Part shown: in pieces, positions 231 to 41,003 of the stretch
How positions within the stretch are numbered: position 1 is the stretch's first letter
Layout of the letters: every line of letters starts with the position of its first letter
Virus record (IMG/VR): IMGVR_UViG_3300025096_002805
From: an uncultured virus (IMG/VR IMGVR_UViG_3300025096_002805)
Taxonomy: Duplodnaviria; Heunggongvirae; Uroviricota; Caudoviricetes
DNA length: 64,000 bases
Reading direction: 5' to 3' (one strand)
Translations under genes and position numbers: made by a program
Notes under the pieces: generated by a model
Told to the model about the DNA's origin: nothing
The model's database searches: none
Seen by the model: the letters and a program-made list of their open reading frames with translations, nothing else

Positions 231-1445
231 TTAACTTACTTGAAAATCTGGATAAGCAGTATGGCCATGTTCTAAAAGATCTAACCCTTTAGCTTCTAGC
301 TCGCCATTTATTCTAACCCCTAATGCCTTTTTGATACTACCAAATACTAGCAAAGAAAACAAGAAAGAAAATAAGCTTATTACTAATGTTCCAAATAATT
401 GAATTAGTATTGAATGCTCTGAAGAAAATATGCCTACGGCAACCGTTCCCCATACGCCGCACACTCCATGAACAGCGATAGCACCGACTGGATCGTCAAT
501 CTTAATCACTCTCTCAATAAAAGAGGAAGCGAAGCACAATATAATACCGGCGATAGCCCCGATTGCGCATGCACTCCAAATGCTAACTACATCTGCCCCT
601 GCGGTTATACCCACTAATCCGGCTAGCACGCCATTCGTTGTCATAGTATAATCTGGCTTCTTTGATTTAAACCAAGAGAAAAGCATCGCAGATAGAGCAC
701 CGGCTGCAGCCGAGAGGGATGTCGTCACGCACACGAGGGATACAGAGGCGGGATCTGCGCTTAATACGCTACCTCCATTGAACCCATACCAACCAAACCA
801 TAGTAGGAAAACGCCAATAGCCACTAAAGGCATACTATGGCCCGGTAGAGCGTTTATTTTGCCGTCCTTATACTTATCTGCCCTAGGCCCTAAAATCCAA
901 GCACAAGCTAAAGCAGCAAACCCTCCGAAGGCATGCACGACACTACTACCTGCGAAATCATAAAATCCCATTTTATCTAGGAATCCTCCTCCCCATTTCC
1001 AAGCTCCAGCTATAGGATAAGCAACAGCAACTAATAAAGTAGCAAACAATAAGAAAGAAGATAGTTTTACCCTCTCCGCTACTGCTCCTGATACTATCGT
1101 TGCTCCTGTTGCTGCGAACATAGCTTGAAACAGAAAATCTGTCCAATATGTATAGTCAGCATATGTTTTTGTTAAGTTTGCTGTATCATCTGAAAAGCCG
1201 ATAGGCCCGCCTATGCTCAGCCAGCCATTAAATAGCTCACCGGGATACATTGTGTTAAAACCTATTAAAGCATAACTGATTAAACCAATACTAATAATAA
1301 AAAGATTCTTGAACAAAACATTAACTGTATTTTTCTGTCTTGTCAAGCCGACCTCTAAACTTGAGAAACCTAAATGCATAATAAATACCAACAAAGCTGA
1401 TATCAAAATCCAAAGGTTATCTATAATGAATTTTACGTCTTCCAT
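231..1445 (-). CDS. amtB: Ammonium transporter (Amt family)
   Basis: Multi-TM protein with Amt motifs ATIVSGAVAER, DFAGSSVVH, WFGWYGFN and DDPVGAIAVHG. Confidence 0.95.
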   Translation of the reverse strand: MEDVKFIIDNLWILISALLVFIMHLGFSSLEVGLTRQKNTVNVLFKNLFIISIGLISYALIGFNTMYPGELFNGWLSIGGPIGFSDDTANLTKTYADYTYWTDFLFQAMFAATGATIVSGAVAERVKLSSFLLFATLLVAVAYPIAGAWKWGGGFLDKMGFYDFAGSSVVHAFGGFAALACAWILGPRADKYKDGKINALPGHSMPLVAIGVFLLWFGWYGFNGGSVLSADPASVSLVCVTTSLSAAAGALSAMLFSWFKSKKPDYTMTTNGVLAGLVGITAGADVVSIWSACAIGAIAGIILCFASSFIERVIKIDDPVGAIAVHGVCGVWGTVAVGIFSSEHSILIQLFGTLVISLFSFLFSLLVFGSIKKALGVRINGELEAKGLDLLEHGHTAYPDFQVS

Positions 1446-8327: not shown

Positions 8328-8400
8328 ACCACTGAGCGCCAACAACTTACGCGCCGGGGGGGTTGGGCGCGAAGCTAAGTCCTTGATAGTCAATGACTTA
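8325..8400. repeat. Paired-palindrome element 3 (core inverted, G-rich on +)
   Basis: taaaccactg-agcgc-caacaactta, 26 nt, taagtccttg-atagt-caatgactta. Confidence 0.9.
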
Positions 8401-9030: not shown

Positions 9031-9201
9031 ATGTCTCAAAACCATAATGAGACCATCCTCAAAAATCTTGAGGATTGGAAAAAGCAAAGGGCTGCAGCGG
9101 TCGTCGCAAAGGCGGAGCGGCAGCGGGTCAAAAAGGCAAGGCAGGAGCGCCAAACCTTCAATCGCGGATTCGGCTCAATTAGAGAGCTGTTAAGTCGTTG
9201 A
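9031..9201 (+). CDS. Small basic protein (56 aa, not in ORF track)
   Basis: Hand-translated MSQNHNETILK...RELLSR; the stop lies inside element 4. Confidence 0.6.
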   Translation: MSQNHNETILKNLEDWKKQRAAAVVAKAERQRVKKARQERQTFNRGFGSIRELLSR

Positions 9202-9264
9202 CTATCAACGACTTAGGTCCGGGGCCTCCCCCCGCGCCGCAAGTCGTTGGTAATCAGTAACTTA
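9191..9264. repeat. Paired-palindrome element 4 (C-rich on +)
   Basis: taagtcgttg-actat-caacgactta (perfect), 24 nt, caagtcgttg-gtaat-cagtaactta. Confidence 0.92.
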
Positions 9265-10819: not shown

Positions 10820-11053
10820 ATGAGAGATATGATTAGTTGTGAAGAGGTTTTCGAGGCCGATCCGCAGGCGCGGGCGGAGTTTGATGCGGTGTGCGACGAG
10901 TGGCTGAACGAGGCCATCGACGCGCAGGACGCCGAGGAGGATCTCGTCGAGTGCGAGGGCTGCGGCGAGCAGTGGTACGCGCATCAGGCGGGTGCGAACG
11001 GCCGCATCGAGTGGTGCCGGAAGTGCTACAAAAACGATCCTTACTACGTGTAA
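10820..11053 (+). CDS. Early acidic Zn-ribbon protein
   Basis: CEGC...CRKC; after promoter 10781. Confidence 0.7.
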   Translation: MRDMISCEEVFEADPQARAEFDAVCDEWLNEAIDAQDAEEDLVECEGCGEQWYAHQAGANGRIEWCRKCYKNDPYYV

Positions 11054-11124
11054 GGGTCTGATTGCCAACGACTTAGGACTTCACCCCCACCCCCCGACGT
11101 AAGTCATTGATACTCAGTGACTTG
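11051..11124. repeat. Paired-palindrome element 6 (C-rich on +)
   Basis: taagggtctg-attgc-caacgactta, 24 nt, taagtcattg-atact-cagtgacttg. Confidence 0.88.
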
Positions 11125-11229
11125 TGAATAGCTCTCTTATTTGAGTCCATATTTGCCTCGAAAAAGCTTTCGTTTTTCTTATATTAAGTCTTGACTTATT
11201 TCGCTTTTTGTGCTATACTCTTTTCAGTT

Positions 11230-11451
11230 ATGAGAGATAGAAAAAAGACGTTTACAGTATATTGGAAAGTGGACGACACCATCAACTTCAAAGCCTTCCC
11301 TATGGTGAAGGGTGAGCCTGACCATAGAGCGTTCAATGACGCAATTGACTTCGCTGGTGTCATAAGGAAAACAACTGTATTAGATGTTCGCATCGAATGC
11401 CGTAAACGTAACGACCGTGATGGCTGGGACATTGAACAAGTATGGCCTTGA
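11230..11451 (+). CDS. Early hypothetical protein
   Basis: After promoter 11191. Confidence 0.7.
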   Translation: MRDRKKTFTVYWKVDDTINFKAFPMVKGEPDHRAFNDAIDFAGVIRKTTVLDVRIECRKRNDRDGWDIEQVWP

Positions 11452-11484
11452 CTTTCAATCCAGTAAGTGTTATACTATTAAGAG

Positions 11485-11691
11485 ATGAGGAAATGGGTAC
11501 TAACTAGAATCGCACACTCAACTATCATTGTTGAATCTGAAACTGATCCCACCGATGACAAGTGGGACCTTGACACGAAGTATGGCAAGCAGTTTGATGA
11601 AGAGTATTACAATGACGGTCTTACCACATGGGAATGTGACACCGTAGAGAATGTGTATGGCGAAGGATACATGAAAAATCTTACCACATGA
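11485..11691 (+). CDS. Early hypothetical protein
   Basis: After promoter 11448. Confidence 0.7.
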   Translation: MRKWVLTRIAHSTIIVESETDPTDDKWDLDTKYGKQFDEEYYNDGLTTWECDTVENVYGEGYMKNLTT

Positions 11692-12041
11692 GAGTACAAG
11701 TTTATTACAACCTACACAAGAAGCGCCTCTCGGTTCGAAACAGAGGTAAAGTAATCAGACACGCCGACATTGTCCTTCTGGAAAATGTGAAGTTCCACGT
11801 TCAACCAGCAGGGCAAGCCAAGGTACGGAAGAACAAACGCAAAAATGTTCACGCTTACGTTGCTGGTGACTTGGCAAGCAAGCAAGGCTTTGGGAATGGT
11901 ACTGTCGAGGAGTTTGATCTTGTCAAGTACAATCCGTATAAGTATGACTTTTTTGTTGACGAAGAAGGAAATGAAATGCGAGACGTATACGAAAAGGCTT
12001 ACATTAAAAACAAAGAGATTTTTGTCAAGAAAAATGCTTGA
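11688..12041 (+). CDS. Conserved phage hypothetical protein
   Basis: VYYNLHK...RKNVHAYV.G...YNPYK. Confidence 0.8.
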   Translation: MRVQVYYNLHKKRLSVRNRGKVIRHADIVLLENVKFHVQPAGQAKVRKNKRKNVHAYVAGDLASKQGFGNGTVEEFDLVKYNPYKYDFFVDEEGNEMRDVYEKAYIKNKEIFVKKNA

Positions 12042-12070
12042 CATTAGCCGCAGTCTGTGGCATAATTAGA

Positions 12071-12310
12071 GTGTTGAAAGAGAAAAAAGAAAACAAAATG
12101 AAGAAGTTCCTAGTAAACTACATACCGGCTGTCCACGAAGGACAGGAGAACAAAGAAGACAAATCCTATTCCTACAGAGTAGAAATGGATGAACAATTCG
12201 CTAATCGTAGCGAGAAAGACGAGTCCGCTGGAATGGCAGCGAAAGACTCGGAGTCTGGCCTATGGAAGAGATTCCGTTGGGACAGAATCCAAAGTGCGGT
12301 GGCCATCTAG
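12071..12310 (+). CDS. Early hypothetical protein (start 12071 or 12098)
   Basis: After promoter 12038; ends WKRFRWDRI. Confidence 0.7.
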   Translation: MLKEKKENKMKKFLVNYIPAVHEGQENKEDKSYSYRVEMDEQFANRSEKDESAGMAAKDSESGLWKRFRWDRIQSAVAI

Positions 12311-12324
12311 CCACCAAACAAACC

Positions 12325-12524
12325 TTCTGGGTGCTACGCTTTAAACGCAGCGTGACGCTCGGGACAATTTTCGACCCGCGCCTCCTTAGAGGTTCGCGCT
12401 CAACAGCGCTACCTTTCCAGAACGCAATGAGTCTGGACGGCAACGCGTGAAGCCGTGGCGCGGTAACGAGAACGCACTCTCTCATAACACGACGCTAGTA
12501 GCCCCTTGCGAAAGCGAGGGGCTA
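12325..12524 (+). ncRNA. Candidate multi-hairpin non-coding RNA (includes hairpin copy 2)
   Basis: Several hand-folded stems with ACGC in their loops; ends in hairpin tagccccttgc-gaaa-gcgaggggcta. Confidence 0.45.
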
Positions 12525-12596
12525 TGTCGTTAACCACCAATGACTTGTGGCCGCGGCCTCCCCCCGCGCCGTAAGTCGTTGATAATCAATGAATTA
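12523..12596. repeat. Paired-palindrome element 7 (C-rich on +), at the convergence point
   Basis: tatgtcgtta-accac-caatgacttg, 24 nt, taagtcgttg-ataat-caatgaatta. Confidence 0.88.
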
Positions 12597-12599
12597 AGG

Positions 12600-12674
12600 T
12601 GGACGCGGGAGTCGGAATCGAACCGACGAGTAAGAGATTTGCAATCTCCCGCCTTACCACTTGGCTACCCCGCG
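12600..12674 (-). tRNA. tRNA-Cys(GCA)
   Basis: Cloverleaf with anticodon loop TTGCAAA, GGTTCGATTCC, U discriminator and CCA. Confidence 0.95.
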
Positions 12675-12688
12675 CACTGTAAATTAAT

Positions 12689-12773
12689 TCCGGGCACTGT
12701 GGCTGTTTCATGAGGCACCTGAACCTCGAGCCTGTATCAGGATCTCCCTGATCACCATGGCCACGTGCCCGGA
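12689..12773 (-). ncRNA. Three-way-junction RNA motif, copy A
   Basis: P1-CATGGTG-P2(GAGAT loop)-ACAGG-P3-ATGAAACA-P1; covaries with copy B. Confidence 0.7.
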
Positions 12774-12791
12774 GTATGGTTCAGAAAATGG

Positions 12792-12908
12792 TTATTTCTT
12801 CGGGTCTCGTTTCCTATCGTATGACCCTTTACCCTTCTTTGTTTTGTGCACGCGCTGCCCCGTGTTCCAATCGACCTGACGCCTAATTTTCTTTTTGGGC
12901 TCCTTCAT
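12792..12908 (-). CDS. arfA: ArfA-like ribosome rescue peptide (38 aa, not in ORF track)
   Basis: MKEPKKKIRRQVDWNTGQRVHKTKKGKGSYDRKRDPKK carries the ArfA signature QRV..KKGKGSYxRK. Confidence 0.7.
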   Translation of the reverse strand: MKEPKKKIRRQVDWNTGQRVHKTKKGKGSYDRKRDPKK

Positions 12909-12913
12909 GGTCT

Positions 12914-13369
12914 TCAGGCCTTCACGGCATCCCAGTCGCTCAAGTCCTCCGCCGCAATCGTCAACTCCTCGTGGATATTGAGTTCCGGCGTTCTCATCTT
13001 GTGCGTGTACAGTTCTTGCGTGTTCTGGAGTGAGGCAAGGAACCTGCTGGCCTCGTCCTTTGCGAGAACATCAGCTCCTGTCTTTTGTCCCTTGAGGTTA
13101 GCTGCGCCTACATCTTGGATGACCCGCGAGCGGCATATGTTGAGGACGGCTCTGTTGAACCGCGTCTCGTCTGTCCAGAACACCGCTAGTTTGTCGGTGC
13201 GCCAGTCAAGCTCGCCGTTGGTGGCCATCCAGTTCCAGAATGCCCAAAAGCGTTGGGTTATCTCCTGCTGGTTCTCGCCCTCCATGCCGATTATCAGGGA
13301 ATCTTCGTCGATTGCCTGCCGATAGTAGTTGATTTTTTCGTTAAACATAATGTTGCAAGCCTCTCTCAC
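12914..13369 (-). CDS. Early hypothetical protein
   Basis: After promoter 13381-13409. Confidence 0.75.
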   Translation of the reverse strand: MREACNIMFNEKINYYRQAIDEDSLIIGMEGENQQEITQRFWAFWNWMATNGELDWRTDKLAVFWTDETRFNRAVLNICRSRVIQDVGAANLKGQKTGADVLAKDEASRFLASLQNTQELYTHKMRTPELNIHEELTIAAEDLSDWDAVKA

Positions 13370-13533
13370 TTGCTGGGGAAAGTATAGCATAATTAACCCC
13401 ACTTGTCAAGCTCTTTTTCTACTCCCACCAGTCGTCCCCGGCGGAATACTTCGACCACCAGTAAACGAAAAACACGACAAGGATAAGAAAACAAATAGCC
13501 ATTCCTTAAAGATACAGCAAACTTGACTAATTG

Positions 13534-14166
13534 TCAATGTTTTTTGTAGTCAATGTTCTGGACTGACTCATCCCAACAGGCCCGACAGTCCGCGCACTCG
13601 TTGCCTTGGGTAGACGCTGGGCAAGAGAACCCTTCCCGCATAACGCCGCTTGTCGTCAGACCTAGGCTCTTTGCTAACTTGGTTGGTGGTTTGCCGTCCA
13701 TCATGTAAGCAGACAAACGAATGACAAGATTGTCGGGCTTACGGCCTAATGCTATCCACTCACGAACAAAACGATATTCCCTAGTCGGCAACCAAAACTT
13801 AATGTGAGGCAACCGCCTTGCAACTTCCGCAATCTTTTCGAGATGCCAAACACCTTGAACATCACCCGAATCATGCCAGCGAAAAAAGCCAGTCTTTTCC
13901 CTTTTGCCAATCATGAAAACCATCATGTCCACCCAATCAATTTGCTCTAATGCCTTGAGCCGCTTTTTCATCGCGGCCTTAACATTTGGGAAAACATAAC
14001 GCCCTTTTCGTGCGTAACAAAAAGAACAAATCGAATCAACAACCTGTGCCAACTTGGAGCCGGTAATACAATCCTCTGCCGGTGTGCTGTAACCAAACCC
14101 CGGCATCTTCGACGGCTTGGATAAGGAGCCGACCTTTCCTTCTGCGATTTTGACAGTAAGCTTCAT
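13534..14166 (-). CDS. GP88-family phage protein (Cys-rich)
   Basis: SKPSKMPG, CSFCYARKG, FRWHDSGD, CADCRACW. Confidence 0.8.
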   Translation of the reverse strand: MKLTVKIAEGKVGSLSKPSKMPGFGYSTPAEDCITGSKLAQVVDSICSFCYARKGRYVFPNVKAAMKKRLKALEQIDWVDMMVFMIGKREKTGFFRWHDSGDVQGVWHLEKIAEVARRLPHIKFWLPTREYRFVREWIALGRKPDNLVIRLSAYMMDGKPPTKLAKSLGLTTSGVMREGFSCPASTQGNECADCRACWDESVQNIDYKKH

Positions 14167-14201
14167 AACTGCGAAAAGTATAACACAAAAGAGGCCAAGT
14201 G

Positions 14202-14447
14202 TCAAGCAAAAATTAAATCCCAGCCTTCCGGGCTAATGCCCGTGTTGGCAAACTCTCTGTCCCCAGCGTCTAACGACTTCAAACACATGATAGGTTTCCC
14301 TTGGCTCAAATCCCAAAGTTCGTGACTGGGAATTGTTACGCTGTAAGGTTTACCTGTTTTGACGCAGGGGCCAGTGAAGGTGTAGGAGTGTTCTGGCTCG
14401 TAAGCCTCCGTGTAGGTGCAAGCACTTGTTTGTATGTATCGTCCCAT
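14202..14447 (-). CDS. Hypothetical protein
   Basis: DREF..TGISPEGW; has its own promoter. Confidence 0.7.
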   Translation of the reverse strand: MGRYIQTSACTYTEAYEPEHSYTFTGPCVKTGKPYSVTIPSHELWDLSQGKPIMCLKSLDAGDREFANTGISPEGWDLIFA

Positions 14448-14513
14448 AACTTCTTATAGCATACCACAATCTGAACCTCATGTCAAGCCTTTTCCTGTCA
14501 TGTTTTACCCCTG

Positions 14514-14588
14514 TAAGTCATTGAGTATCAATGACTTAGGGCCTGCGGCCTCCCCCCGCGCCGTAAGTTGTTGGGGTGTAATGAGTTA
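14514..14588. repeat. Paired-palindrome element 8 (C-rich on +)
   Basis: taagtcattg-agtat-caatgactta (perfect), 25 nt, taagttgttg-gggtg-taatgagtta. Confidence 0.9.
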
Positions 14589-14610
14589 CGCCCCCGCTTT
14601 CGCGGGGGCG
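14589..14610. terminator. GC hairpin abutting element 8
   Basis: cgcccccgc-tttc-gcgggggcg. Confidence 0.55.
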
Positions 14611-14700
14611 TTTACCTCAGACCGAATGAAAAAAACAACAAAAGGGGAGGCGGGTTGCCTTCGCGCCAGCGGGTCTTATTTGCCCGCCTCCCCAGTGACA

Positions 14701-15588
14701 TCAAGAGGCAACAAGTATATCGTCAGACTTGACCGAGGGCTTGCGGCTCAACTTTGAGTAGTAGCTCTTGTCTTTGGCGGCTCTCGTCAACTTCCTGAGA
14801 ATGCTCTCGTTGACCTTCTCTGCATACTCAAAACGCTCGTTCTGTACGGCGTTCGGGTTCTTCCCGCTGGACAAATGCTGAGTCGCAGCATTGTAAAGCG
14901 TGTAAAGATTCCGAGCTTCATCCTCTTTGTAAGTAGGATTCACCCAAATCTTGGTGATGTCCTGCCTCAAGGAATTACTCAGCACCTTGGAGTCTTGAAG
15001 ATTCTTCAAAATGTAATCTCCAATCGTGTTATCAATTTTGACCTCGCTCAAACGAGTGAAGTCAGAACCGACTGTCTCAAAGGCATCTATCGCACGGTCG
15101 ATAGCGTTTGACACGCCGCTCAAGTCCAGCTTGCTGGAATGCTTCTGATTGAAGCTGAAAGCAGAGCGTAATCCTTTCATGCCGTTCGTGCATATCTCGC
15201 GTAACATACCCAAGTCCAGACCTGCAAAACAGGAACGGTCATAAGAGTTACGCACCGTGACACGCATATCGAGCTTGTCGCCGACCTGTGGAATGAAGAT
15301 AGACTTGTCGGTGAAGTCGTATGTTCCGTACATCGTCGCGCCATCACGCGCCACGCGGATTTCCTTCGCGTATGTAATACCCTTGTCGGTGAGGACTTCC
15401 TCAACTGAATCAACGAGGGTCGAGTTAAGCAACAAGCCATACTTGTCACTTGTTACACCAAGCACCTTGCCTGTGTCTGTCCTGCGAGTCCCCCAGTATC
15501 CCGCTTTGTTACCGTCAGAAGTTTGAAGTTCTTCCATAACAACAGGGAACCGATACTCGCCGCTTGTAGGTCTGCTTGTTCTAGCCAT
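14701..15588 (-). CDS. DUF932 / TIGR03299-like phage-plasmid protein
   Basis: RTDTGKVLGV.SD.Y, RNSYD.S, REICTNG, LYNAAT. Confidence 0.8.
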   Translation of the reverse strand: MARTSRPTSGEYRFPVVMEELQTSDGNKAGYWGTRRTDTGKVLGVTSDKYGLLLNSTLVDSVEEVLTDKGITYAKEIRVARDGATMYGTYDFTDKSIFIPQVGDKLDMRVTVRNSYDRSCFAGLDLGMLREICTNGMKGLRSAFSFNQKHSSKLDLSGVSNAIDRAIDAFETVGSDFTRLSEVKIDNTIGDYILKNLQDSKVLSNSLRQDITKIWVNPTYKEDEARNLYTLYNAATQHLSSGKNPNAVQNERFEYAEKVNESILRKLTRAAKDKSYYSKLSRKPSVKSDDILVAS

Positions 15589-16581: not shown

Positions 16582-16704
16582 TAAGTCGTTGAGTATCAAT
16601 GACTTACGCGCGGGGGGGAGGTCGCGGCCGTAAGTCGTTGGGTATCAGTTACTTAGGGAATAGAAAGCGAAAAAAGTCATAAGTTATTGATATTAAATGA
16701 TTTA
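16582..16704. repeat. Paired-palindrome element 9 (G-rich on +) plus a third palindrome
   Basis: Palindromes at 16582-16606, 16631-16655 and 16680-16704, each separated by 24 nt. Confidence 0.9.
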
Positions 16705-28863: not shown

Positions 28864-30226
28864 TTATTTGGCATTTTTTCTTTAGCAATTTCTTCTGCTA
28901 TCACTTTTCTTCCGGCATCGCTATCAAAGTTAATCTGATTCCTTCTCTCGGCTATCGAGGCTAGAATCCTTTCGTAGTAAATTACACTATCGTGATGGTT
29001 ATTTGGCATTTTTTCCTTCGCATCTGTTAAATTATTTGGCATTTTTTTATTCACATTTGTTCTACCTACGACTTCGCTCATCAAAGGCCAAGGTTGACTA
29101 GGCATCTATGTCCTCTCCATGTATAGAAATTTTAAATCTTTTTATATTGTATTCCATGTCGTTTACCCTTTCTTTTATCGTTTCTGCTAGGTGTTGTAGT
29201 TCGCGCAAACATGATAACACATCATCTTGAAATTGGTTAGGGTTGGCTTCTTCCTCTTCGCCTTCTACCTCTGTTACGACATTATTTGGCATTTTTTAAT
29301 TAGTAATTACGCTAACGCCTCTCTGTTGAACTGTTTCGGAGGCTTTTTTATTTGCGTACCTGACTGCTTCATCTATATTATTTGTCTCAAGTTGCTTGGA
29401 AACTAAAGCGGCAAGGAATGAGTCTCCCGCTCCCGACAAATCAAATACATCTACTTTTTCGGCGGGATAATAGTTGAAGCCTTTCTCTTTCATAATCATA
29501 CAACCTTGGTCGCCAAGCGTAACGATTAGTTTGTTAATCCACCCTTGGCAGTCAATCCTAGTTTTGATGGCTTCAAATTCTGGGCTGTTGATTTTAATAA
29601 AAGCTACATCCTTGCACCAAGTTCCTATGCATTTTTTTGTGTCCAGAAATGTATTCGTGTTATTTTTACAAAATTTCTCAATATCTGATTCAGAGAGAAA
29701 ACCTTTCCCATAGTCGCTAATTACTACAGCGTCATAATCTCTTATCTCTCTCTCGCTTATGATGCTATTATCAAGGGGAGCTATCTTACCCTCCCCTTCA
29801 TCAACTCTCAAGAAAGTATAATTAAGTTTAGAGTCAATATACCTAGTCTTTTTTATTACTTCTTGTTGTTGGATAAGATCTACATTAAACCCAAGAGACT
29901 CAAGATTTCTGGCTGTATTACCTGCCATGCCGGGAGTATTAACTGAGTCTTTTGGGGTAAAAACTGGAGCTGGCACATCTGGGCAAAGACGAGAGGCTCT
30001 GCCGTATATGAAAATATCGTCACAGCTTTCTCCTATTACTAATACTCTTTTATTTGGCATTTTCTTGTTCGTATTTTTCGTATTCTTCCACAACGGCGCG
30101 ACCCTCTTCTTTTGTTATACCAAATTTATGCCAATATTCCTCATACAAATCGTCATGAATATCCCCCCAACACTCAAGGACTCTCATTAGAAGTAACTTC
30201 CAGTCTATGTCGTTATTTGGCATTTT
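28864..30226. repeat. Six copies of TTATTTGGCATTTT
   Basis: Copies start at 28864, 28999, 29032, 29282, 30050 and 30213. Confidence 0.85.
29296..30060 (-). CDS. PfkB kinase, HldE/RfaE domain I-like (heptose-7-P kinase)
   Basis: RLCPDVPAPV, VISDYGKG, DLSGAGDSF. Confidence 0.85.
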   Translation of the reverse strand: MPNKRVLVIGESCDDIFIYGRASRLCPDVPAPVFTPKDSVNTPGMAGNTARNLESLGFNVDLIQQQEVIKKTRYIDSKLNYTFLRVDEGEGKIAPLDNSIISEREIRDYDAVVISDYGKGFLSESDIEKFCKNNTNTFLDTKKCIGTWCKDVAFIKINSPEFEAIKTRIDCQGWINKLIVTLGDQGCMIMKEKGFNYYPAEKVDVFDLSGAGDSFLAALVSKQLETNNIDEAVRYANKKASETVQQRGVSVITN

Positions 30227-30263
30227 CTTGTTCGCTTTTATCGCATATCGTCTTTGTGTCTTT

Positions 30264-30704
30264 TTATTGTAAATTTAATTGGCCAGTTATTTTATCAATT
30301 AGTCTTGTTGTTGATTTTCCTTTCGTAAGGCTTAGTAGCTTAACTGTCCCTCCGTTCTTTTCTACTGTAAGCCGCTCTCTTGTAGCCACAGGGCATTTCT
30401 TTTCCCAGTTACCAAGGTAGTCTCCGCCTTTTACATAAATATCTGGTTTTGTTGATTCTAAAAAATTACAAGCATCTGTTTCATCAAATATTCGAACCTC
30501 ATCTACCCATCTTATAGCTTCAAGAACAGCTTTCCTGTCTTTTTCATTATTTATGGGGCGAGTAGAGCCTTTTAACTCTCTGACTGATCGGTCACTGTTG
30601 CATCCAACAATAAGGTAGTCTCCAAGTTCTCTGGCTTCTCGCAAAAAAGAAACATGGCCAGCATGAATCAAGTCAAAACACCCGTTTGTTGCTATTGTTG
30701 TCAT
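30264..30704 (-). CDS. Heptose-1-P adenylyltransferase, HldE/RfaE domain II-like
   Basis: TNGCFDLIHAGH, NSDRSV, VKGGDY, STT. Confidence 0.9.
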   Translation of the reverse strand: MTTIATNGCFDLIHAGHVSFLREARELGDYLIVGCNSDRSVRELKGSTRPINNEKDRKAVLEAIRWVDEVRIFDETDACNFLESTKPDIYVKGGDYLGNWEKKCPVATRERLTVEKNGGTVKLLSLTKGKSTTRLIDKITGQLNLQ

Positions 30705-31063
30705 TTCTTTTTTCCTCCGTAATATTCTGTTGCGTGACCTTCTTTTACTAAGGTTTGATTATAGCTTGTCCCAGCACCAGACAGATTGAAAAGCTCCCCA
30801 AGTAGCCTGCCGTACTTGCCCTTCTTATCGATAGAAGTCTCTACAATAAATTCATTCTTCCCTTCCTTAATTAATTCCTTCAATCGAGCTTTAGCTGCGA
30901 GACCCCTTTTCTTCTCTGCTTTGTCTCTTGTGCGGCTCTCTGGTGCGTCTATGCCATACAGTCTAATGCGCTCCTTCTTGAAGGTACTGAACCCGCAATC
31001 AATTAGTGCGTCTACTGTGTCTCCGTCTACTACTCTTATTAATTTTGCTTTGTATTGATACAT
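30701..31063 (-). CDS. Thermonuclease (SNase) family
   Basis: VVDGDT, IRLYGIDAPE, GKYGRLL. Confidence 0.9.
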   Translation of the reverse strand: MYQYKAKLIRVVDGDTVDALIDCGFSTFKKERIRLYGIDAPESRTRDKAEKKRGLAAKARLKELIKEGKNEFIVETSIDKKGKYGRLLGELFNLSGAGTSYNQTLVKEGHATEYYGGKKK

Positions 31064-32028
31064 TGTAAAATACTTAACTCTGGTTTTTTGGTTAGTCTTA
31101 TAGTGCTTGCCCATCCTCCTTCGTTGCGTTTTTTAAGAACATCTTTATTAAAATGTTTTTGTATTATGTCGCCGCTAAATGCATTATGATTATCCTCACC
31201 ATGTAATTCCATTAAAATAATGCCAACTTTATTTAAAATAACCTCAAGATTAGGCTCTTTCAACAAGAAGGACTCTGCTCCTTCTATATCTACCTTCAGT
31301 AAGTCTATGTAGTCTATATCGTGACTGTTTATTATTTCTGGTAAATTTATTGTTTTTTTCTTAACTGACTCTTCGTAATCAGGCGTCCATGAGCTACCTT
31401 TCGGCTGGGAGATGCAGTTTGTGCCAGAATGGTTAAGAGGAGCTAAATGAAAGATTATATCTTGGTCGTTCGTGTCATGGAAGACTTTATTGATGAGCTT
31501 TATTTTGTGTTTATTTTTCTTGTTTATAATTGGTCCCATTGATGCTATCCTATCGTCCGCTTCAACTGCTATATATTTTTGAGCCTTATCGGAGCTAAAC
31601 AAAGCGAACCAACCACAATTAAAGCCAAGATCTACTATAGTATTTAGTTCGGGGATCTGATCTGCTCTACCGTACTCTTCGTGTAGGAATATCGGATTAT
31701 AGTCTCCTTCGACTTTGTTTATTTCTTTTAGTTCTGAGACAGAAAAATAATTAGATAACGACCATACTTTATCTCCTTGTATTAAGATTTCTGATATGCT
31801 CTTTTTATCTTTTTCAAGAATAAGTTTTAAATAGGGATAGCTTAAAAAATCAGAATGACGTACAAAATGAACATACTCGTTTGACATTGACTTAAAGGTA
31901 GCGTCGTATATAGGAGTAGCCTCCTCCGCAGGAGAATAGAGGCCTTTAACGCGAACTACAACGCCTTCTAGTGGTTCCTCTACAGAGAATCTGATAACCT
32001 CTTTTGATATGCTTTTGAACATTATCAT
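31039..32028 (-). CDS. FkbM-family methyltransferase
   Basis: VDLGFNCG, LLKVDIEGAE. Confidence 0.85.
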   Translation of the reverse strand: MIMFKSISKEVIRFSVEEPLEGVVVRVKGLYSPAEEATPIYDATFKSMSNEYVHFVRHSDFLSYPYLKLILEKDKKSISEILIQGDKVWSLSNYFSVSELKEINKVEGDYNPIFLHEEYGRADQIPELNTIVDLGFNCGWFALFSSDKAQKYIAVEADDRIASMGPIINKKNKHKIKLINKVFHDTNDQDIIFHLAPLNHSGTNCISQPKGSSWTPDYEESVKKKTINLPEIINSHDIDYIDLLKVDIEGAESFLLKEPNLEVILNKVGIILMELHGEDNHNAFSGDIIQKHFNKDVLKKRNEGGWASTIRLTKKPELSILQCINTKQN

Positions 32029-32031
32029 AAT

Positions 32032-33687
32032 CTATTTATAAACATAGTAATCCTCTAACACTACTGCGTCGAGTTCTGTAGAATCTAGCACCTTAGTGGC
32101 CTCTAGATATCTTGTCAGTATAGATCTGCCTCTACTGTTAAAGGAGGTGTTTACTAATACGGGTATATTTGTTATTTTTTCAAATTCGTTTAGTATCTCG
32201 TAAACGAATCCATTTTGGTCAGCCGAAAGTGTTTGTAGTCTAGATGTGCCGTCAATGTGGGTAACAGCAGGGAGCAGATTCCTGAATTCTTTTCTTACGG
32301 GAGGACTGTACGACATATACTTATAGTTTACGTTGCTAGAAGTCTCGAAATATGTGGAAGCTGACTCCTCCTTGCATATTGGGGCAAAGGGCCTGTACCA
32401 CTCCCTAAATTTAACCTTTTTATTGATAATATCTTTAGCTTGGTGGCTTCTTGGGTCAGCTAGTATACTTCTATTACCTAAAGCTCTTGGGCCAGTCTCA
32501 CTATTGCCACGGCAAATTCCGATAATCTTACCTTTTTCTAGCTCTTTTGCTATAAGTTGTGGTGTTGCTTTTTCCCAAGGCCTATGATCTAGTATATAAG
32601 GCAAGGTTTCTTTATCTAGAATCTCGCATCCAGTATACATAAGTTCTGGAGCAACTTCCTTTTTGAGGTAGTTAGCTATCATGCCATAAGACAGGCCGCT
32701 GTCACCCGGGGAACAGGGAACAAAGAAATTAGTATTTGGATGAGTTTTGCTTAGCTTTTCGTTTAGCAATACGTTTAGTGCTCCACCACCTGTAATGCAG
32801 ACATTTTTATGCTTTTTCTCGTCGAAAAATTTATAAAAACGTTTTAAAGTGCACTGCTCAAAGGCGAGTTGGGCGCAAAAAGCAAGATCGTAGGACTCTT
32901 TGCCCTGAAATTCGTCCACCTTGAGGTCCCCGAAGTTCTCCAAAAAATCAAGGTTCACTTCGTATGGATCTGACTCAAAATACGGCAAAATACGTCTCAT
33001 ATAATCCTCGCTTAACGAACCATAAGCAGATAAACCCATAACTTTACCTGCATTAGTAAGGTTAGATAGTAAAGGTCCGGGAGCTTTTTTGATTTCGGAA
33101 ATGAATCGTCCAAGGCTGGCGTACTTTGTAGGGAATGGTGTTAAATCATACTCGTTTATTTGATTAAGGTTTGGGTTTTCCTTACTCATTTCATAAACAC
33201 AAAATGAACCATCGTTACCGCTTCCATCATGACTAACAACTAAAGCCTCATCAAATCCACTGGAGTAAAAAGCTCCTGCTGCGTGAGCTCTGTGGTGCCA
33301 ACATAAGTCACCTTTGGACCCTTTAAGTTTCATTTTCTCAACGAACTCTTCGGAGTAGCTGCCATCTTGCACGTGAACTTCTTTAATGTCAAAAAAGTCA
33401 ACCATACATTTAGTAAGTTCTTCTGGCGTATACCACTCAAATAGCCCTACATCGAAACTAGGACGAAAGACCCCTCTTGACTCCAACAATTTCTTAAGGT
33501 AAATGCATATTTCTCCATACAGGCTCGTTTGGTCTTCAGCATCAATCGTCAGCATAAGATGGTTCAAGCGAAAGTGTCTGTTACCGAAGATTCTTTCGAG
33601 TTCTATGGTATAGAGGTTGCCGTCTACATAAACGGAGAGGTTCGCGTCATGCGCTCCACAAAAAAAACTAAAAATAGACTTATGCAT
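32032..33687 (-). CDS. Carbamoyltransferase (NodU/CmcH family)
   Basis: HDA, ELER, HHRAHA, GKVMGL, GPRALGNRS, LVNTSFN. Confidence 0.92.
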   Translation of the reverse strand: MHKSIFSFFCGAHDANLSVYVDGNLYTIELERIFGNRHFRLNHLMLTIDAEDQTSLYGEICIYLKKLLESRGVFRPSFDVGLFEWYTPEELTKCMVDFFDIKEVHVQDGSYSEEFVEKMKLKGSKGDLCWHHRAHAAGAFYSSGFDEALVVSHDGSGNDGSFCVYEMSKENPNLNQINEYDLTPFPTKYASLGRFISEIKKAPGPLLSNLTNAGKVMGLSAYGSLSEDYMRRILPYFESDPYEVNLDFLENFGDLKVDEFQGKESYDLAFCAQLAFEQCTLKRFYKFFDEKKHKNVCITGGGALNVLLNEKLSKTHPNTNFFVPCSPGDSGLSYGMIANYLKKEVAPELMYTGCEILDKETLPYILDHRPWEKATPQLIAKELEKGKIIGICRGNSETGPRALGNRSILADPRSHQAKDIINKKVKFREWYRPFAPICKEESASTYFETSSNVNYKYMSYSPPVRKEFRNLLPAVTHIDGTSRLQTLSADQNGFVYEILNEFEKITNIPVLVNTSFNSRGRSILTRYLEATKVLDSTELDAVVLEDYYVYK

Positions 33688-34045
33688 AGACCCTCACTTT
33701 CAAAACATCTGTTATATCTGCTACGAGTAAGTTGGTATAGTATCGCCAGCCGCCATCGAGAACAATAGCATAAATGTCCTGAGCGAACGCAAGGTCTTTG
33801 GCTAAATAAACGAATCTCGCCTTATCTATATCGACTTCCGCAGACTGATTCAAGGGAGTGTTTATTCTAATCCAGCCATTTCCGTTGTCGGATAAGTAGG
33901 GATCTGCAAACAGATTTAATTTATCGTAGGTAAGGATAAGGTCTCCTTTTACTGTGTTCATTTCAGCAATCAAAGTAGACAGTCCTTCTTTTGTTTTGAG
34001 TTTACTAAAGGTATCTTTAGTTGGAAGCTCTATTGTTTTATGCAT
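33680..34045 (-). CDS. Hypothetical protein
   Basis: ORF in an operon. Confidence 0.6.
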   Translation of the reverse strand: MHKTIELPTKDTFSKLKTKEGLSTLIAEMNTVKGDLILTYDKLNLFADPYLSDNGNGWIRINTPLNQSAEVDIDKARFVYLAKDLAFAQDIYAIVLDGGWRYYTNLLVADITDVLKVRVYA

Positions 34046-34986
34046 TCTAGTATTTTCTCCTTTACCATGTCGAACGATATCCTCCTTCGGCATTCAAACT
34101 TTTTGTTTCTTGGGCAGTAAGACCAGTTCTGAGTTATTTCATCAAAGGAATTTAAATCTTCATCATTTAAACAGCCGTGACAAACCGACTCGTTCTGAGC
34201 CCTAAAGCAATCAAACTCGTTTTCCTTATGGGTAGAGCCACTAACCATAACGACCTTCTTTCCTAGAGCCCAAGCAAGCCAACTAAGGCCAGAGCTGAGA
34301 CCAATAAAGAATTCGCAGTTTATTAGTTGTTTTACCCTCTTTGCTATCGGAAAACGACCAGTCTCATTAATAGCTTTTTTAGGCATAAAGTTGAAATCAT
34401 TTGGTACGCCCCATGATGATTCTGCGTCTATACATAAAACTTTATACCCTTTAGTTTTTAGAAACCTGACTACTTTGTCCCACCCCTGCTCGTGCCACAG
34501 CTTGCATTTGCTTGTACTTTGTACTGAGATGCAGACATACTTAGACTTTGGGACCGTATACCCCTCAGACCCCTTAATAGAAATTGTTGGTGTTATTGGC
34601 TTATAGGGCAAGTGTAATTGGTCGCATATCTGTTTCTGAATATTAACTTTTTTATTTAAAAAAAAGTTTACCTTTTTCAGGTCATCTATTTGGCCTAGGT
34701 TAGCTTTAACTATTTGGTCTCTCCAATTGACGTTAAATTCTCCGTCTGGCCCTTTACCTAGAAGCTCTGGTAGTCCGTTTGGGTGGCTTTCTTTGGTTAC
34801 GTGAAACTGATGTATGGTTTGGCAAGGAAGAAACCTAACTTTATCCTCAATATCTTCGAACAGTTCTGCCCATCTTGTTTTTATGAATAATTTTTTACCT
34901 GTAAGCTTGTGGTATTCGTAGCAATAAGGCGACCACGCTATGTTGTCGCCTAATGATTGAGAAACAAATTCTATAATCTCTGCCAT
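34030..34986 (-). CDS. Aah/TibC-like protein O-heptosyltransferase (GT9-like, Cys cluster)
   Basis: SLGDNIAW, FIGLSSGLSWLAW, CHGC...CPR...FEC. Confidence 0.8.
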   Translation of the reverse strand: MAEIIEFVSQSLGDNIAWSPYCYEYHKLTGKKLFIKTRWAELFEDIEDKVRFLPCQTIHQFHVTKESHPNGLPELLGKGPDGEFNVNWRDQIVKANLGQIDDLKKVNFFLNKKVNIQKQICDQLHLPYKPITPTISIKGSEGYTVPKSKYVCISVQSTSKCKLWHEQGWDKVVRFLKTKGYKVLCIDAESSWGVPNDFNFMPKKAINETGRFPIAKRVKQLINCEFFIGLSSGLSWLAWALGKKVVMVSGSTHKENEFDCFRAQNESVCHGCLNDEDLNSFDEITQNWSYCPRNKKFECRRRISFDMVKEKILECIKQ

Positions 34987-34987
34987 T

Positions 34988-35587
34988 TTACTTAAAGTGA
35001 GGCCCAAAAACCCAACCCCGTAGGCAGTACTTTTCCCCTTTAGTAACGGGGGTGACTCCGTTTAGCATCCAAGAAGGGAAAAACACGCTTGCTCCAATTT
35101 CTTTTTGTGCGTAACATGGTGTCCCGTAATTATGAATCAAATGATCTCCCCCTTCGTAATCTTCCTCTTTACTAAGTGAGACATAAAAGCTTATTTTTCT
35201 GTATTGTTTGAAGTTGGGGTTGAAGTTATCTCCTATATCTATTCTTGGCGCGTCCGAGTCTCTGGTCTCTCCGGAATATTTAACTAATTCAAGACCCTCT
35301 GAGAAACCAGTGATGTTAAAGTCCCAAGAACTATTTGCTTCCATTGCATAAGAAGAGAGCTTCTCGTACAACCAAAGATTATCTGGAGAAAAGTCTATGC
35401 GGGTAGATTGGTTGTGTTTATCTTGGTTGGTATGCTCTTGACCGGATAGGCTTAAGGAGCTAGAGTGATCTCTTATGACTTTGAGGCATTCATCCTCAGA
35501 AAGCCCTTTGGGAAAGAAATAATAGTCATTAAGCCTTAGCTCATCGCCGAGCTTATCTAATTTGTTTATGTCGCATAAGTAATACAT
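34988..35587 (-). CDS. 2OG-Fe(II) oxygenase-like protein
   Basis: RKIS..DYEGG..FPSW..VTPVTKG; the His ligands appear substituted (RID, NGV). Confidence 0.7.
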   Translation of the reverse strand: MYYLCDINKLDKLGDELRLNDYYFFPKGLSEDECLKVIRDHSSSLSLSGQEHTNQDKHNQSTRIDFSPDNLWLYEKLSSYAMEANSSWDFNITGFSEGLELVKYSGETRDSDAPRIDIGDNFNPNFKQYRKISFYVSLSKEEDYEGGDHLIHNYGTPCYAQKEIGASVFFPSWMLNGVTPVTKGEKYCLRGWVFGPHFK

Positions 35588-35787
35588 TATTCTTTTTCTG
35601 CTAGTTTTGCTACATCTTTAGCAAGCTCATTGGTAATTCTTTCATGATTCTTTTCTATTGCGTCCTTTTTCCATAGAGGTAGCCCATCGTATAGCTTTTC
35701 ATAGGCTGCTTGATATCTTCTTGCAAGCTCTGAGTTTTTTTTCTTTCTTGGCATATAAGATTATTATAGCAAAACCTTAATGAAAGG

Positions 35788-36831
35788 TCAATTATAATCG
35801 TTCATTGTCTTTTCATATTGTATCCAATTATCCTCGCAGTTCCAGTTTCCGTCTTCGTCTAGTGTTGGTCTACTAAAGTCTAATTTGGCTTTGTCTGTTG
35901 CGCTAAAGCCATGGACTTTTTGATAACTGTCTTCTTTTTTAGAGGTAATATCAGGTTTTGTTATGTTGACGGGTCCTTTCGCCATCTTCACCGAAGCGGT
36001 TTCAGCTCCTTTTTTGTTCAAAAAACACGTATCGAACGTATCTTTCCCTGTCCAATTTCCGTCGTCATGCTGCTCGTCTGATCCACCTAGCCTGCCAACC
36101 GTATCGTACCAAGGTTCTGGTAAAATGACTTTTTCATTATATTTACCACCGTTCCAGTTAATGACCCCTTTTCTGTATATTCTTGAGAAGAAAAATCTCA
36201 GCTGTATATTTGGTCTTTGAAATAAATGATGGTTAATTATACTTTCTACTGGTTGCACGAAGCATTCGTCGTAGTATTTTCTTAATTTTAAGAAAGCGGA
36301 ACAATAATAATCCATCAAGTAAGGAGGCCCAAAAGCGACCCAGTTATTGAGGTTTACAGTGCGCACGGGACCATTTGGATAGACATGATGCCAGTAAGGT
36401 AAGCTTATGGAGTCGTGTTCTACGATTTCCATGTCTGGATATGAACTGGAGGTTTCGGCTCTTACTATGACATCGTAGTCTCCTTCTGACGCAAACAGGT
36501 TAGCTCTCCATATTTTATAGAGAGTTGAGTAAGGTCTTCCGTTCTTATGCGCAAAATCTATTGCATCGGTAAAATATTCAGGTGACTCTACGTATTCTTG
36601 GTTTATTGACGCAAAGCTCTTTAAGAAAGCACTTTGGTTTTCTACTTCTAGCTTTACTGGATTGTACGCCTTTTTAAAGGCTTCTATGGTGTCTCCTTCT
36701 TGGTATACGTTTTCTTCGTCCCATAAACTAGCGTAAACGTCTGCGTCATGCTTTTCTATAAGTTCCTGCCAATACCTTTGATTTTGTCTTATATAGTACG
36801 GTATGCCCGCAAAACATATTGCTACCTTCAT
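35788..36831 (-). CDS. Hypothetical protein, possible glycan-modifying enzyme
   Basis: MKVAICFAG...YDVIVRA; located in the glycosylation island. Confidence 0.55.
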   Translation of the reverse strand: MKVAICFAGIPYYIRQNQRYWQELIEKHDADVYASLWDEENVYQEGDTIEAFKKAYNPVKLEVENQSAFLKSFASINQEYVESPEYFTDAIDFAHKNGRPYSTLYKIWRANLFASEGDYDVIVRAETSSSYPDMEIVEHDSISLPYWHHVYPNGPVRTVNLNNWVAFGPPYLMDYYCSAFLKLRKYYDECFVQPVESIINHHLFQRPNIQLRFFFSRIYRKGVINWNGGKYNEKVILPEPWYDTVGRLGGSDEQHDDGNWTGKDTFDTCFLNKKGAETASVKMAKGPVNITKPDITSKKEDSYQKVHGFSATDKAKLDFSRPTLDEDGNWNCEDNWIQYEKTMNDYN

Positions 36832-36833
36832 AT

Positions 36834-38432
36834 TTATTTATAAAAGATATCCTTGATTTTCTCAAAAACAGTATTCGGATCTGGGTGACACAGTGGTTCA
36901 TCAAAAGACTCAAAGCAAAACTGGTCTTGCGTTGCAAAGCAGCCAAAATCAGTTTTTAGAGTCGCATTTTTAAAGAATTTTTCAGGGTCTACGCTGTAAG
37001 ATATATCGGAGCCGCAAAACCTAGTGCAACTGCCGGGGACATGAATACTCTTATACTTTTGAGATCCGTGCCTGTACGGCATAATAAACTCTGGGTGATA
37101 CTGAGCCCCTATTAAGACTATCCAAGTGTCCGTGGTTCCGGCTATGTGCAGCGGCGCTGTGTCTGTGGTTACGAGAACTTTACATTGGTTTATCATGTGG
37201 TATTGATCTTCTAATGAATTGTTAGTTGCCGTAAGATCTAGTACGCCTGAAAGGTCAACTTCTTCTGTGTGATTTGGGGTAAATTTATCTGGACACTCCC
37301 AGTTCGTGTTAGTTACCCAGTTGCTATCATTGTTATTTGGTTCGAATTTTGGACGTCCTGCGACGGCAACTTTTATACCACTCTCCTTTAGGAGTCTGAA
37401 TAGTTTGTTCCATTTGTCGAAACTCCAGAATCTTAAGGGGGAGGACGAGTTAACAGAGCACACCACATAGTCTTCAAGGTGGGAGTATTCTTTATTTTTT
37501 ATGGGGTTAGTTGGGTAATACCTCATGCTCTTTTCTTTGTTTGTCAAAGAGAAGCCAGCGAAATTAGCGGCCCTGCCTACATGATCATAGCAGGTATACT
37601 TAAACATAATATTAGTTTCCTTGGCTTCTTGAGGTTTTAGTATAAGCTGATCGTAGAGGTCTTCGTTCTCCGTCGGCGGCACTTTTCGTCCGTGGTATCC
37701 GTTGCTTGATTGAGAGAAAGCAGCTTTGGTATGTTGCTTATCGGAGTGATCTATTAACTCTTTGGTGTGTATAAATATTTTATCTACGTTAGGATGGTTG
37801 AAAAATACTTGAGGTCTTTTGGTTACAACCCAAACCTTTCTGCCTATAGCGTTTGAAATTTTTCTTATCGTCGGTTCAGCTAAGAAAACGTCTCCGATTC
37901 CCCCAGTATAAGCTAAGAATATAACAAAAGGCTTCTCCTTAAATTTGTTTTCTTTTAAATATTTAAAAAAGTTAGTGAAAATTAACTCCGCGCTTCCTTT
38001 TTTTAGACTAGTAGGGTATTTCCCGCTTTGTCTAAACTTCTTGAGTTCTTCTGAATTATAAAAGTTGCAAATGTGAGAATAGTTTACGTGAAATTGGTTT
38101 ATCATTAAAGGTGGGCACGTTTTGTTTACACATCCAACTTCCATCCTTATATACTGACTGTATAGAAAAGAGTCGTTTCCAATCCAGAAAGGGCCTGAGA
38201 TGTTACAGGTGTTTCCTCGGCTATCTTTATTCCATCCATCGAAGATACTCCTTTCGATTAGCTCGTTCTCTTCGTTAAAAAAAGAAATAGATAAAGGGAA
38301 CTCTGGTTCCCCGTTCAATTGCAAATGTATTGTGTTCTCTTTTAGCGGTGCGCCGTCTTGAAGTTCCACTTCCACTAGTTCCGAGTCCGGTGGGGTTTTT
38401 GCTTTTTCATAAAATGTTGGCTGATAGGTCAT
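36834..38432 (-). CDS. GT9-family glycosyltransferase with N-terminal extension
   Basis: GIGDV..AEPTIR, TTDTAPLHIAG. Confidence 0.8.
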   Translation of the reverse strand: MTYQPTFYEKAKTPPDSELVEVELQDGAPLKENTIHLQLNGEPEFPLSISFFNEENELIERSIFDGWNKDSRGNTCNISGPFWIGNDSFLYSQYIRMEVGCVNKTCPPLMINQFHVNYSHICNFYNSEELKKFRQSGKYPTSLKKGSAELIFTNFFKYLKENKFKEKPFVIFLAYTGGIGDVFLAEPTIRKISNAIGRKVWVVTKRPQVFFNHPNVDKIFIHTKELIDHSDKQHTKAAFSQSSNGYHGRKVPPTENEDLYDQLILKPQEAKETNIMFKYTCYDHVGRAANFAGFSLTNKEKSMRYYPTNPIKNKEYSHLEDYVVCSVNSSSPLRFWSFDKWNKLFRLLKESGIKVAVAGRPKFEPNNNDSNWVTNTNWECPDKFTPNHTEEVDLSGVLDLTATNNSLEDQYHMINQCKVLVTTDTAPLHIAGTTDTWIVLIGAQYHPEFIMPYRHGSQKYKSIHVPGSCTRFCGSDISYSVDPEKFFKNATLKTDFGCFATQDQFCFESFDEPLCHPDPNTVFEKIKDIFYK

Positions 38433-39850: not shown

Positions 39851-40064
39851 TTGTTTTAAAAATTTCGTCGTAGTTTTCTCTAAAAGAGATTCTGTCTGAA
39901 GTCCTATCTGCGTCACCCTTACCTGCGGCACCAACCATGCCGCCTGCCTTTACGTGCTTATATGTTTCGTTATCATAAGTTTCGCTATGGTTCCTTTTGG
40001 TCGAAACTTTTTTTCCATCTTTTACATAATGGTCTCTTGGTTTTTTTTTAGTTTTTTTACTCAT
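39831..40064 (-). CDS. Small hypothetical protein
   Basis: AGKGD..R....F.ENYD.IF phage motif. Confidence 0.65.
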   Translation of the reverse strand: MSKKTKKKPRDHYVKDGKKVSTKRNHSETYDNETYKHVKAGGMVGAAGKGDADRTSDRISFRENYDEIFKTNEDKPS

Positions 40065-40918: not shown

Positions 40919-40926
40919 TTTTAAAT

Positions 40927-41003
40927 TGGAGCCACCTCTTGGATTCGAACCAAGGCGCTTCCGATTACAAATCGGATGCTCTGCCGGACTGAGCTAAGGT
41001 GGC
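40927..41003 (-). tRNA. tRNA-Thr(UGU)
   Basis: Cloverleaf with loop TTTGTAA and CCA. Confidence 0.93.

Follow-up and report, generated by a model that had tools for sequence, protein, structure and literature searches.

A 38-residue phage peptide with a C-terminal half homologous to part of the ribosome rescue factor ArfA and headed by a distinct WNTG module

The uncultured Caudoviricetes virus IMGVR_UViG_3300025096_002805 carries a real gene for a very basic peptide of 38 amino acids on the minus strand (12792..12908) of the stretch of DNA analysed here, which has a length of 64,000 nucleotides and is referred to as the window. The C-terminal half of the peptide is homologous to ArfA of E. 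coli, and its N-terminal half is a head of its own, conserved in a subfamily that we designate WNTG. Based on the comparisons described below, we consider it probable that the peptide is a phage-borne, release-factor-dependent ribosome rescue factor that would be made without gating by tmRNA.

The reading frame and its relation to ArfA

The frame extends from an ATG (12906-12908) to a TAA (12792-12794), and its translation, MKEPKKKIRRQVDWNTGQRVHKTKKGKGSYDRKRDPKK, contains the motif QRVHKTKKGKGSYDRK quoted in a preliminary description of this DNA. In line with that description, which had pointed to a short basic ORF of 38 residues at this place, 16 of the 38 residues are K or R as counted from the sequence. 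The product can be divided into residues 1-17, MKEPKKKIRRQVDWNTG (12858..12908, minus strand), representing a basic head peculiar to the subfamily (R9 and G17 invariant; W14, N15 and T16 at least 90% conserved), and residues 18-38, QRVHKTKKGKGSYDRKRDPKK (12795..12857, minus strand), which correspond to the half homologous to Q27-N47 of E. coli ArfA.

With the Pfam family ArfA (PF03889) the peptide scores 26.3 bits (E 4.9e-6), above the gathering cut-off of 25.5, the match being limited to residues 18-34 (profile positions 25-41 of 44). When 1.84 billion representatives were searched exhaustively with phmmer, 29 short metagenomic relatives were retrieved at E<=1e-3, the best of which (E 6.1e-9) is 74% identical over residues 2-35. 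When the codons for residues 8-33 (26 codons) of nine homologous genes were compared with those of the window, 9-13 synonymous and 6-11 non-synonymous differences were counted, which is the pattern of a translated gene. Moreover, contigs from three further marine DNA runs cover the frame without any difference. The Pfam score, the 29 relatives, the codon pattern and the identical contigs from elsewhere thus identify the frame as more than a chance occurrence.

It is accordingly very improbable that the frame has no function, either as a chance ORF or as the decaying remnant of a transferred arfA-like fragment. Its extreme shortness and its weak ribosome-binding site would fit such an origin, as would the lack of RNA cover in the one RNA run that partially covers the window. 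However, this run contains 0.11 of the window words, and its contigs span 13313-13450 and part of the tRNA, outside the ORF, and are therefore evidence for its expression neither way. In contrast, a frame of this kind would not be expected to have full-length relatives with E values down to 6e-9, to conserve its amino acid sequence amid synonymous change, to recur identically in three other metagenome runs, or to coincide exactly in its borders with an insertion relative to sister phages.

To delimit the resemblance to ArfA, we compared an alignment of 23 WNTG subfamily sequences with a canonical ArfA alignment of six enterobacterial and five viral sequences, including E. coli arfA. In hhalign, the two aligned at 96.5% (E 7.8e-10), with only Q18-K38 of the peptide pairing with Q27-R48 of ArfA. 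Correspondingly, a search of the PDB chains with the subfamily profile retrieved six ArfA sequences (E 5.6e-5 to 2.6e-4) over ArfA residues 27-47. Only ArfA chains scored below E 1, and the next match was one capsid protein at E 2.5. The similarity to ArfA, for which the preliminary description had proposed an HMM search, hence extends beyond the motif and comprises residues 18-38; the likeness to BrfA that was to be sought in the same way did not emerge, as no BrfA chain was retrieved from all PDB chains at E<=10. The peptide matched no NCBIfam family, and in PHROGs only phrog_37108 at E 0.54. In a protein atlas it adjoins clusters of ArfA-domain proteins of 35-40 amino acids (scores 0.90-0.92).

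Within the shared half, Q18, R19, V20 and H21 align with Q27, R28, V29 and E30 of ArfA. They are followed by the tail K24-K25-G26-K27-G28-S29-Y30 and DRKRDPKK, which includes the KGKGS motif of ArfA. In ArfA, residues Q27-E30 add a strand to the beta-sheet of RF2 formed by domains 2/4, the tail bearing KGKGS occupies the empty mRNA channel, the ordered part comprises 46-48 residues, and truncation to 40 residues abolishes activity (PMC8012679). The C-terminus of the peptide is the equivalent of ArfA residue 47, near the end of the ordered part in the structures. Since Q18-K38 aligns through this position, the phage peptide retains the sequence of the strand, and the full ordered tail.

The N-terminal part is different. 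Nothing ahead of Q18 was aligned with ArfA by hhalign, and residues 1-17 of the peptide are unrelated to residues 1-26 of ArfA, which position and activate RF2 by means of a helix (15-24), A18 and F25 (PMC8012679). Neither H6, G9, A18 nor F25, all invariant among the 11 canonical sequences, has a counterpart in the peptide; T16 takes the aligned position of F25. In place of the RF2-activating region of ArfA, the peptide has the head KKIRRQVDWNTG. The earlier designation "ArfA-like" therefore holds for residues 18-38, as seen with Pfam, hhalign and the PDB profile, and has to be replaced for residues 1-17 by a WNTG module of their own.

Transcription unit and setting in the phage genome

A promoter of host type, close to the consensus, precedes the unit in which the peptide is the second cistron. 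This sigma-70-type promoter, TTGACA-17-TATACT (13381..13409, minus strand; 11/12 match, TG extension), would drive a 144-aa gene, the peptide, a structured RNA element and tRNA-Cys. The 144-aa gene (12914..13348, minus strand) begins at ATG 13348 as judged by homology, the ORF list giving GTG 13402, and ends with a TGA (12914-12916). By reading of the sequence, the latter is separated from the peptide ATG by the five nucleotides AGACC (12909..12913, minus strand), and the Shine-Dalgarno-like purines in front of the ATG are weak. Given its own TAA and its position as second cistron, the peptide would be made whenever the promoter fires, and not only when trans-translation is saturated.

The placement of the ORF upstream of RNA motif A and tRNA-Cys on the same strand was also recovered as first described. 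RNA motif A (12676..12791, minus strand), identified by folding and sister comparison, is a conserved structured element of 116 nt that follows directly after the peptide stop, with a folding energy of -44.2 kcal/mol and a z score of -3.57. It is made up of an outer stem CCGGGCACGUGGC/GCCACAGUGCCCGG with inner hairpins. The element matches no Rfam family, its core was found only in this phage clade (three sister contigs; L001 3436-3552, L003 3433-3552), and the three sequences, being so few, display almost no covariation. The last gene of the unit is tRNA-Cys(GCA) (12600..12674, minus strand; ARAGORN; Rfam tRNA 61.1 bits). As the sister phages L001-L003 have a GC-rich terminator hairpin at exactly this position, the tRNA appears to have been inserted or substituted recently at this end of the unit.

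In these three IMG/VR relatives the neighbouring 144-aa protein is 71-75% identical, but there is no ORF at the site of the peptide: the RNA element lies directly 3′ of the 144-aa gene and is followed by the terminator. They carry instead a 39-aa WNTG gene, 58% identical, approximately 1.5 kb upstream, ahead of genes for an 81-aa protein and a GP88-like protein. Its GTG is located 7-9 nt after the -10 box of its own TTGACA-type promoter, so that the mRNA looks leaderless. At this upstream position the window contains no WNTG copy. The gene is thus kept in the phage clade despite its differing position. The identity of the peptides is lower than that of the flanking genes, which hints at replacement by a homologue rather than movement of the gene.

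A comparable arrangement of promoters was observed at early genes of this phage group, with the promoter placed 7-10 nt before the start codon (window 14177-14205 and 14458-14486, both minus strand; L001 ~1717-1760; L003 ~2000-2040), for example as TATACT-N10-ATG or TATGAT-N9-GTG. This suggests that early mRNAs of this phage group may be leaderless or near-leaderless. In addition, a 25-bp palindrome, TAAGTCnTTGATnnTCAAnGACTTA, punctuates the early-gene cassettes. It is present at 11 places in the window between 6212 and 16704 (0 expected in shuffles), including 8376-8400, 9191-9215, 12572-12596 next to the unit described here, 14514-14538 and 16582-16606, often just upstream of TTGACA-type promoters, and it also occurs in the WNTG-bearing contig L167 (1053-1081). 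The palindrome is a candidate operator or hairpin between early-gene cassettes.

The window as a whole is part of a large phage; its products include RIIA, DnaB, a Pol III alpha-type polymerase and a class II ribonucleotide reductase, together with four tRNAs. Comparison of 65 ORFs of the window with Pfam, and searches of its DNA with ARAGORN and Rfam, revealed neither a tmRNA nor SmpB nor a phage-encoded release factor. The same DNA is found across many marine metagenome runs, and 19 of them contain at least half of the sampled words (six of these being possible sources of the window). The phage also harbors a full-length Amt ammonium-transporter gene (231-1445, minus strand). Relatives of this Amt that are 81-98% identical and 350-415 aa in length are common in marine metagenomes, one cluster having 202 members on 69 contigs; relatives of cellular length, one of them named Latescibacterota, are only 67-71% identical. 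A cluster of sugar-nucleotide and envelope-modification genes (29296-43339, minus strand) comprises three GT9 heptosyltransferase-like genes, a carbamoyltransferase, epimerases/dehydratases, a PIG-L deacetylase, a cytidylyltransferase and a PfkB kinase, with a tRNA-Thr embedded at 40927-41003.

The WNTG subfamily and its non-stop wiring

The consensus of the 29 relatives is K.PR..V.WNTG.RVHKPKKGKGSY.RK. In the alignment of 23 sequences, R9, G17, R19, G26, K27, G28, S29 and R32 are invariant, and W14, N15, T16, K22, K24, K25 and Y30 are conserved to at least 90%. Because the conserved positions include R9, W14, N15, T16 and G17, the head is under selection as well. All of the 30 subfamily sequences scanned match PF03889 at E<=0.01. 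The IMG names of 23 members from 10 clusters were looked up: two are called "stalled ribosome alternative rescue factor ArfA", three "hypothetical protein", and the rest are nameless.

A strict WNTG pattern detected 10 loci in IMG/VR and, in one genome each of 185,579 species, four loci (L120-L123), all in Verrucomicrobiota MAGs, one of which is titled Limisphaerales. The subfamily profile was present in one of 401 sampled Verrucomicrobiota genomes, which was the query's own source genome. Most of the subfamily is thus of viral or metagenomic origin, and cellular members are rare. The four chromosomal genes encode 39-aa peptides with a GTG start and a TGA stop followed by a terminator. At the two loci examined, L120 and L123, the neighbour is a PSD1/DUF1553 gene, with a thioredoxin gene also nearby at L120, and these surroundings are a non-prophage setting. 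RF-1-domain matches were obtained in all four MAGs. Three of them have an RF2-like frame bearing the SPF motif, the frames found in the fourth (G005) being limited to one of RF1 length and a small one, and small ArfB-like frames are present in three of the four.

The tail motif is spread more widely. A back-translated KxKKGKGSY pattern matched at least 116 loci in IMG/VR (L004-L119), which we classed with our own regular expressions by the residues before the motif. Among the matches listed, 75 are NPxAK-type, 13 long GPKxKERK-type, five WNTG-type, five canonical ArfA-like, four EELQxY-type and 14 others, and the canonical ArfA-like ones are 47-54 aa in length with their own stops. The motif hence stands in at least five differing N-terminal contexts among these matches. 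It was also noted within longer viral proteins, namely one class of 125 aa whose members end in ...GNYTKP..RKR.F..IKAGGKGGAPGQWS and another of 150-195 aa with F.GPK.KERK..AP.TK. The spread of KxKKGKGSY over these contexts suggests a reused module that may dock to the ribosome.

The strongest functional clue is the wiring of the sister genes. For both arfA and brfA it has been described that the message ends before the stop codon and that product is made only when trans-translation is saturated (PMC8012679). Four of the 10 IMG/VR sister genes (L163, L164, L169 and L171) likewise have a hairpin and a U-tract in frame, downstream of the KGKGSY motif and ahead of the stop codon. In L169 and L171 a simple scanner called intrinsic terminators inside the frame, with 9-bp stems followed by T-runs approximately 30 nt before the stop. 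RNAfold revealed GGUGGU-UUCG-GCCGCC and U7, ending 2 nt before the TAA, in L163 (same contig as L020), and CAGGAGGAA...UUCCUCCUG followed by UUUUAUU, 24 nt before the TAG, in L164 (same contig as L034). The scanner missed these in-frame hairpins of L020/L163 and L034/L164, both of which are followed by T-runs in RNAfold, probably because the stem extends into A/T runs and too few T are left. Of the remaining sister genes, L170 has the hairpin and lacks the T-run, in L167 the TGA overlaps the 3′ end of the terminator stem, and L165, L166, L168 and L172 have plain stops. Moreover, several metagenomic members end in Phe-rich tails that resemble translated U-tracts, such as ...PDFFVAFFG and ...SDFFIAII. 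That roughly two lineages of the subfamily have the non-stop layout is an argument for WNTG peptides being back-up rescue factors.

In contrast, the copy in the window has its TAA, and no hairpin with U-tract was detected in frame; it is thus devoid of the non-stop wiring. This agrees with the preliminary description, which had noted the stop codon of the ORF itself (TAA 12792-12794) and had deduced production without tmRNA control, a deduction that holds with the non-stop element absent here and present in four of the 10 sister genes.

Possible mode of action and comparison with known rescue factors

By analogy with ArfA, the K/R-rich tail K22-K38 including KKGKGSY would thread into the mRNA entry channel, which would be vacant only where a ribosome has stalled on a truncated message, at its 3′ end. 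Q18-R19-V20-H21 would form a short strand joining the beta-sheet of RF2 domains 2/4, as does Q27-E30 of ArfA, and the WNTG head might stand in for the N-terminal helix of ArfA in holding the release factor active. The active release factor would then hydrolyse the peptidyl-tRNA, and the ribosome would be recycled. The phage could profit from more free ribosomes while messages are degraded during infection, and from release without tmRNA tagging. The further suggestion of a link to host RNase or tRNase defences is conjectural, and the peptide may instead be the mimic proposed beside it. The homology of residues 18-38 to ArfA, the conserved family, the retention of the gene in the clade, the sister wiring and the chromosomal homologues all support the reading as a back-up rescue factor. 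Against it speak the head, of which residues 1-17 cannot be aligned with ArfA 1-26, and the weak Shine-Dalgarno sequence. A precedent that likewise counts against active rescue is the variant ArfA(A18T), which shows that RF2 can be recruited without being activated.

The peptide might, alternatively, plug the channel: it would dock in the empty mRNA channel and perhaps recruit RF2, and hydrolysis would not be triggered. Such a decoy would be a competitor of tmRNA-SmpB, ArfA or ArfB and might, for instance, spare phage nascent chains from tags or hold host ribosomes. The idea draws on the absence of the RF2-activating N-terminus of ArfA, on ArfA(A18T), which binds and recruits RF2 and yet gives no release (PMC8012679), and on the ungated production of the window copy. 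We nevertheless regard it as unlikely, considering that sister genes wired to yield product only upon failure of trans-translation suit a back-up factor and not a blocker, that chromosomal copies are kept in four bacterial MAGs, where a blocker of rescue would be costly, and that a simple plug would need none of the strong conservation of the head (R9, W14, N15, T16, G17). Still less likely is a different partner, with the WNTG head engaging RF1, both release factors as in ArfT, or another hydrolase. This would be in line with a head unrelated to the RF2-specific contacts of ArfA, in which F25 aligns with T16, and with ArfT, a factor of similar size with its own stop codon that uses RF1 or RF2 (PMC6299226). 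The conservation of the QRV strand, which pairs with the RF2 sheet in ArfA, argues in the opposite direction, and the engagement of another partner is in any case a variant of the rescue reading.

Release-factor-dependent rescue therefore remains our preferred interpretation of the peptide. A broader version of it, which we put forward tentatively as a possibility that we do not expect to hold in full, would see KxKKGKGSY as a transferable sensor for the empty channel, fused by phages to no fewer than five unrelated heads; WNTG would then contact a release factor, perhaps RF1 or both factors, in a manner so far undescribed, and the ungated copy would provide rescue without tmRNA tagging.

Among known factors, E. 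coli ArfA (YhdL; PF03889; PDB 5MDV, 5MGP, 5U4I, 5H5U) is a small basic peptide with the QRV strand, KKGKGSY and the RK tail, and it has the non-stop layout in common with the sister genes. However, it is made as 72 aa (52-55 mature) compared to 38 aa here, and the peptide is phage-borne, occurs outside the beta/gamma-proteobacteria, has its own stop codon and lacks an in-frame hairpin. ArfT of Francisella tularensis (40 aa) resembles the peptide in its size, its own stop, the lack of RNase III or terminator gating and a basic C-terminal tail, which in this factor, compared here by its description only, reads KKGGSTNKK and not KKGKGSY; its authors hold it to be of independent origin (PMC6299226). 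BrfA of Bacillus subtilis (PDB 6SZS) is an RF2-dependent rescue peptide translated from an mRNA that ends before the stop, and its N-terminus contacts RF2 otherwise than that of ArfA (PMC8012679); likeness in sequence to it was not found with the subfamily profile among all PDB chains at E<=10. The closest cellular counterparts are the Limisphaerales/Verrucomicrobiota peptides L120-L123, which are 53-59% identical and share the WNTG head, a KPKKGKGSY tail and an own stop, but are cellular, start with GTG, have a TGA followed by a terminator and end their tails in HKETTP.

Phage-borne PF03889 genes are already annotated in two isolated phages, namely gp30 of pelagiphage HTVC027P, which is transcribed in infection (PMC12753301), and g10 of Citromicrobium phage RXM (PMC8953757), both known by annotation alone. 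Full-text searches of the literature revealed neither functional work on a phage ArfA nor any account of the WNTG head. In a collection of isolated phages, neither megablast of 11000-15000 nor tblastn of the peptide gave a match, the low-complexity filter probably hiding K-rich peptides. Similarly, tblastn with a 57-aa sister (P0012) gave chance-level matches only (E 3-10), and with a 54-aa canonical-type viral ArfA none. These results say nothing on the absence of such peptides from isolated phages.

Taken together, a channel sensor of the ArfA type with a different head is found not only in a marine phage clade and many further viral contigs but also in a narrow lineage of Verrucomicrobiota. 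With its 38 residues the peptide is accessible to chemical synthesis, and a reconstituted system could show directly which release factor it uses or whether it blocks rescue. Should it be active, the freeing of stalled ribosomes would be a bottleneck that phages tackle themselves, ArfA-like factors would evolve by retaining the sensor and swapping the effector part, and the tmRNA gate could be retained or lost inside one subfamily.
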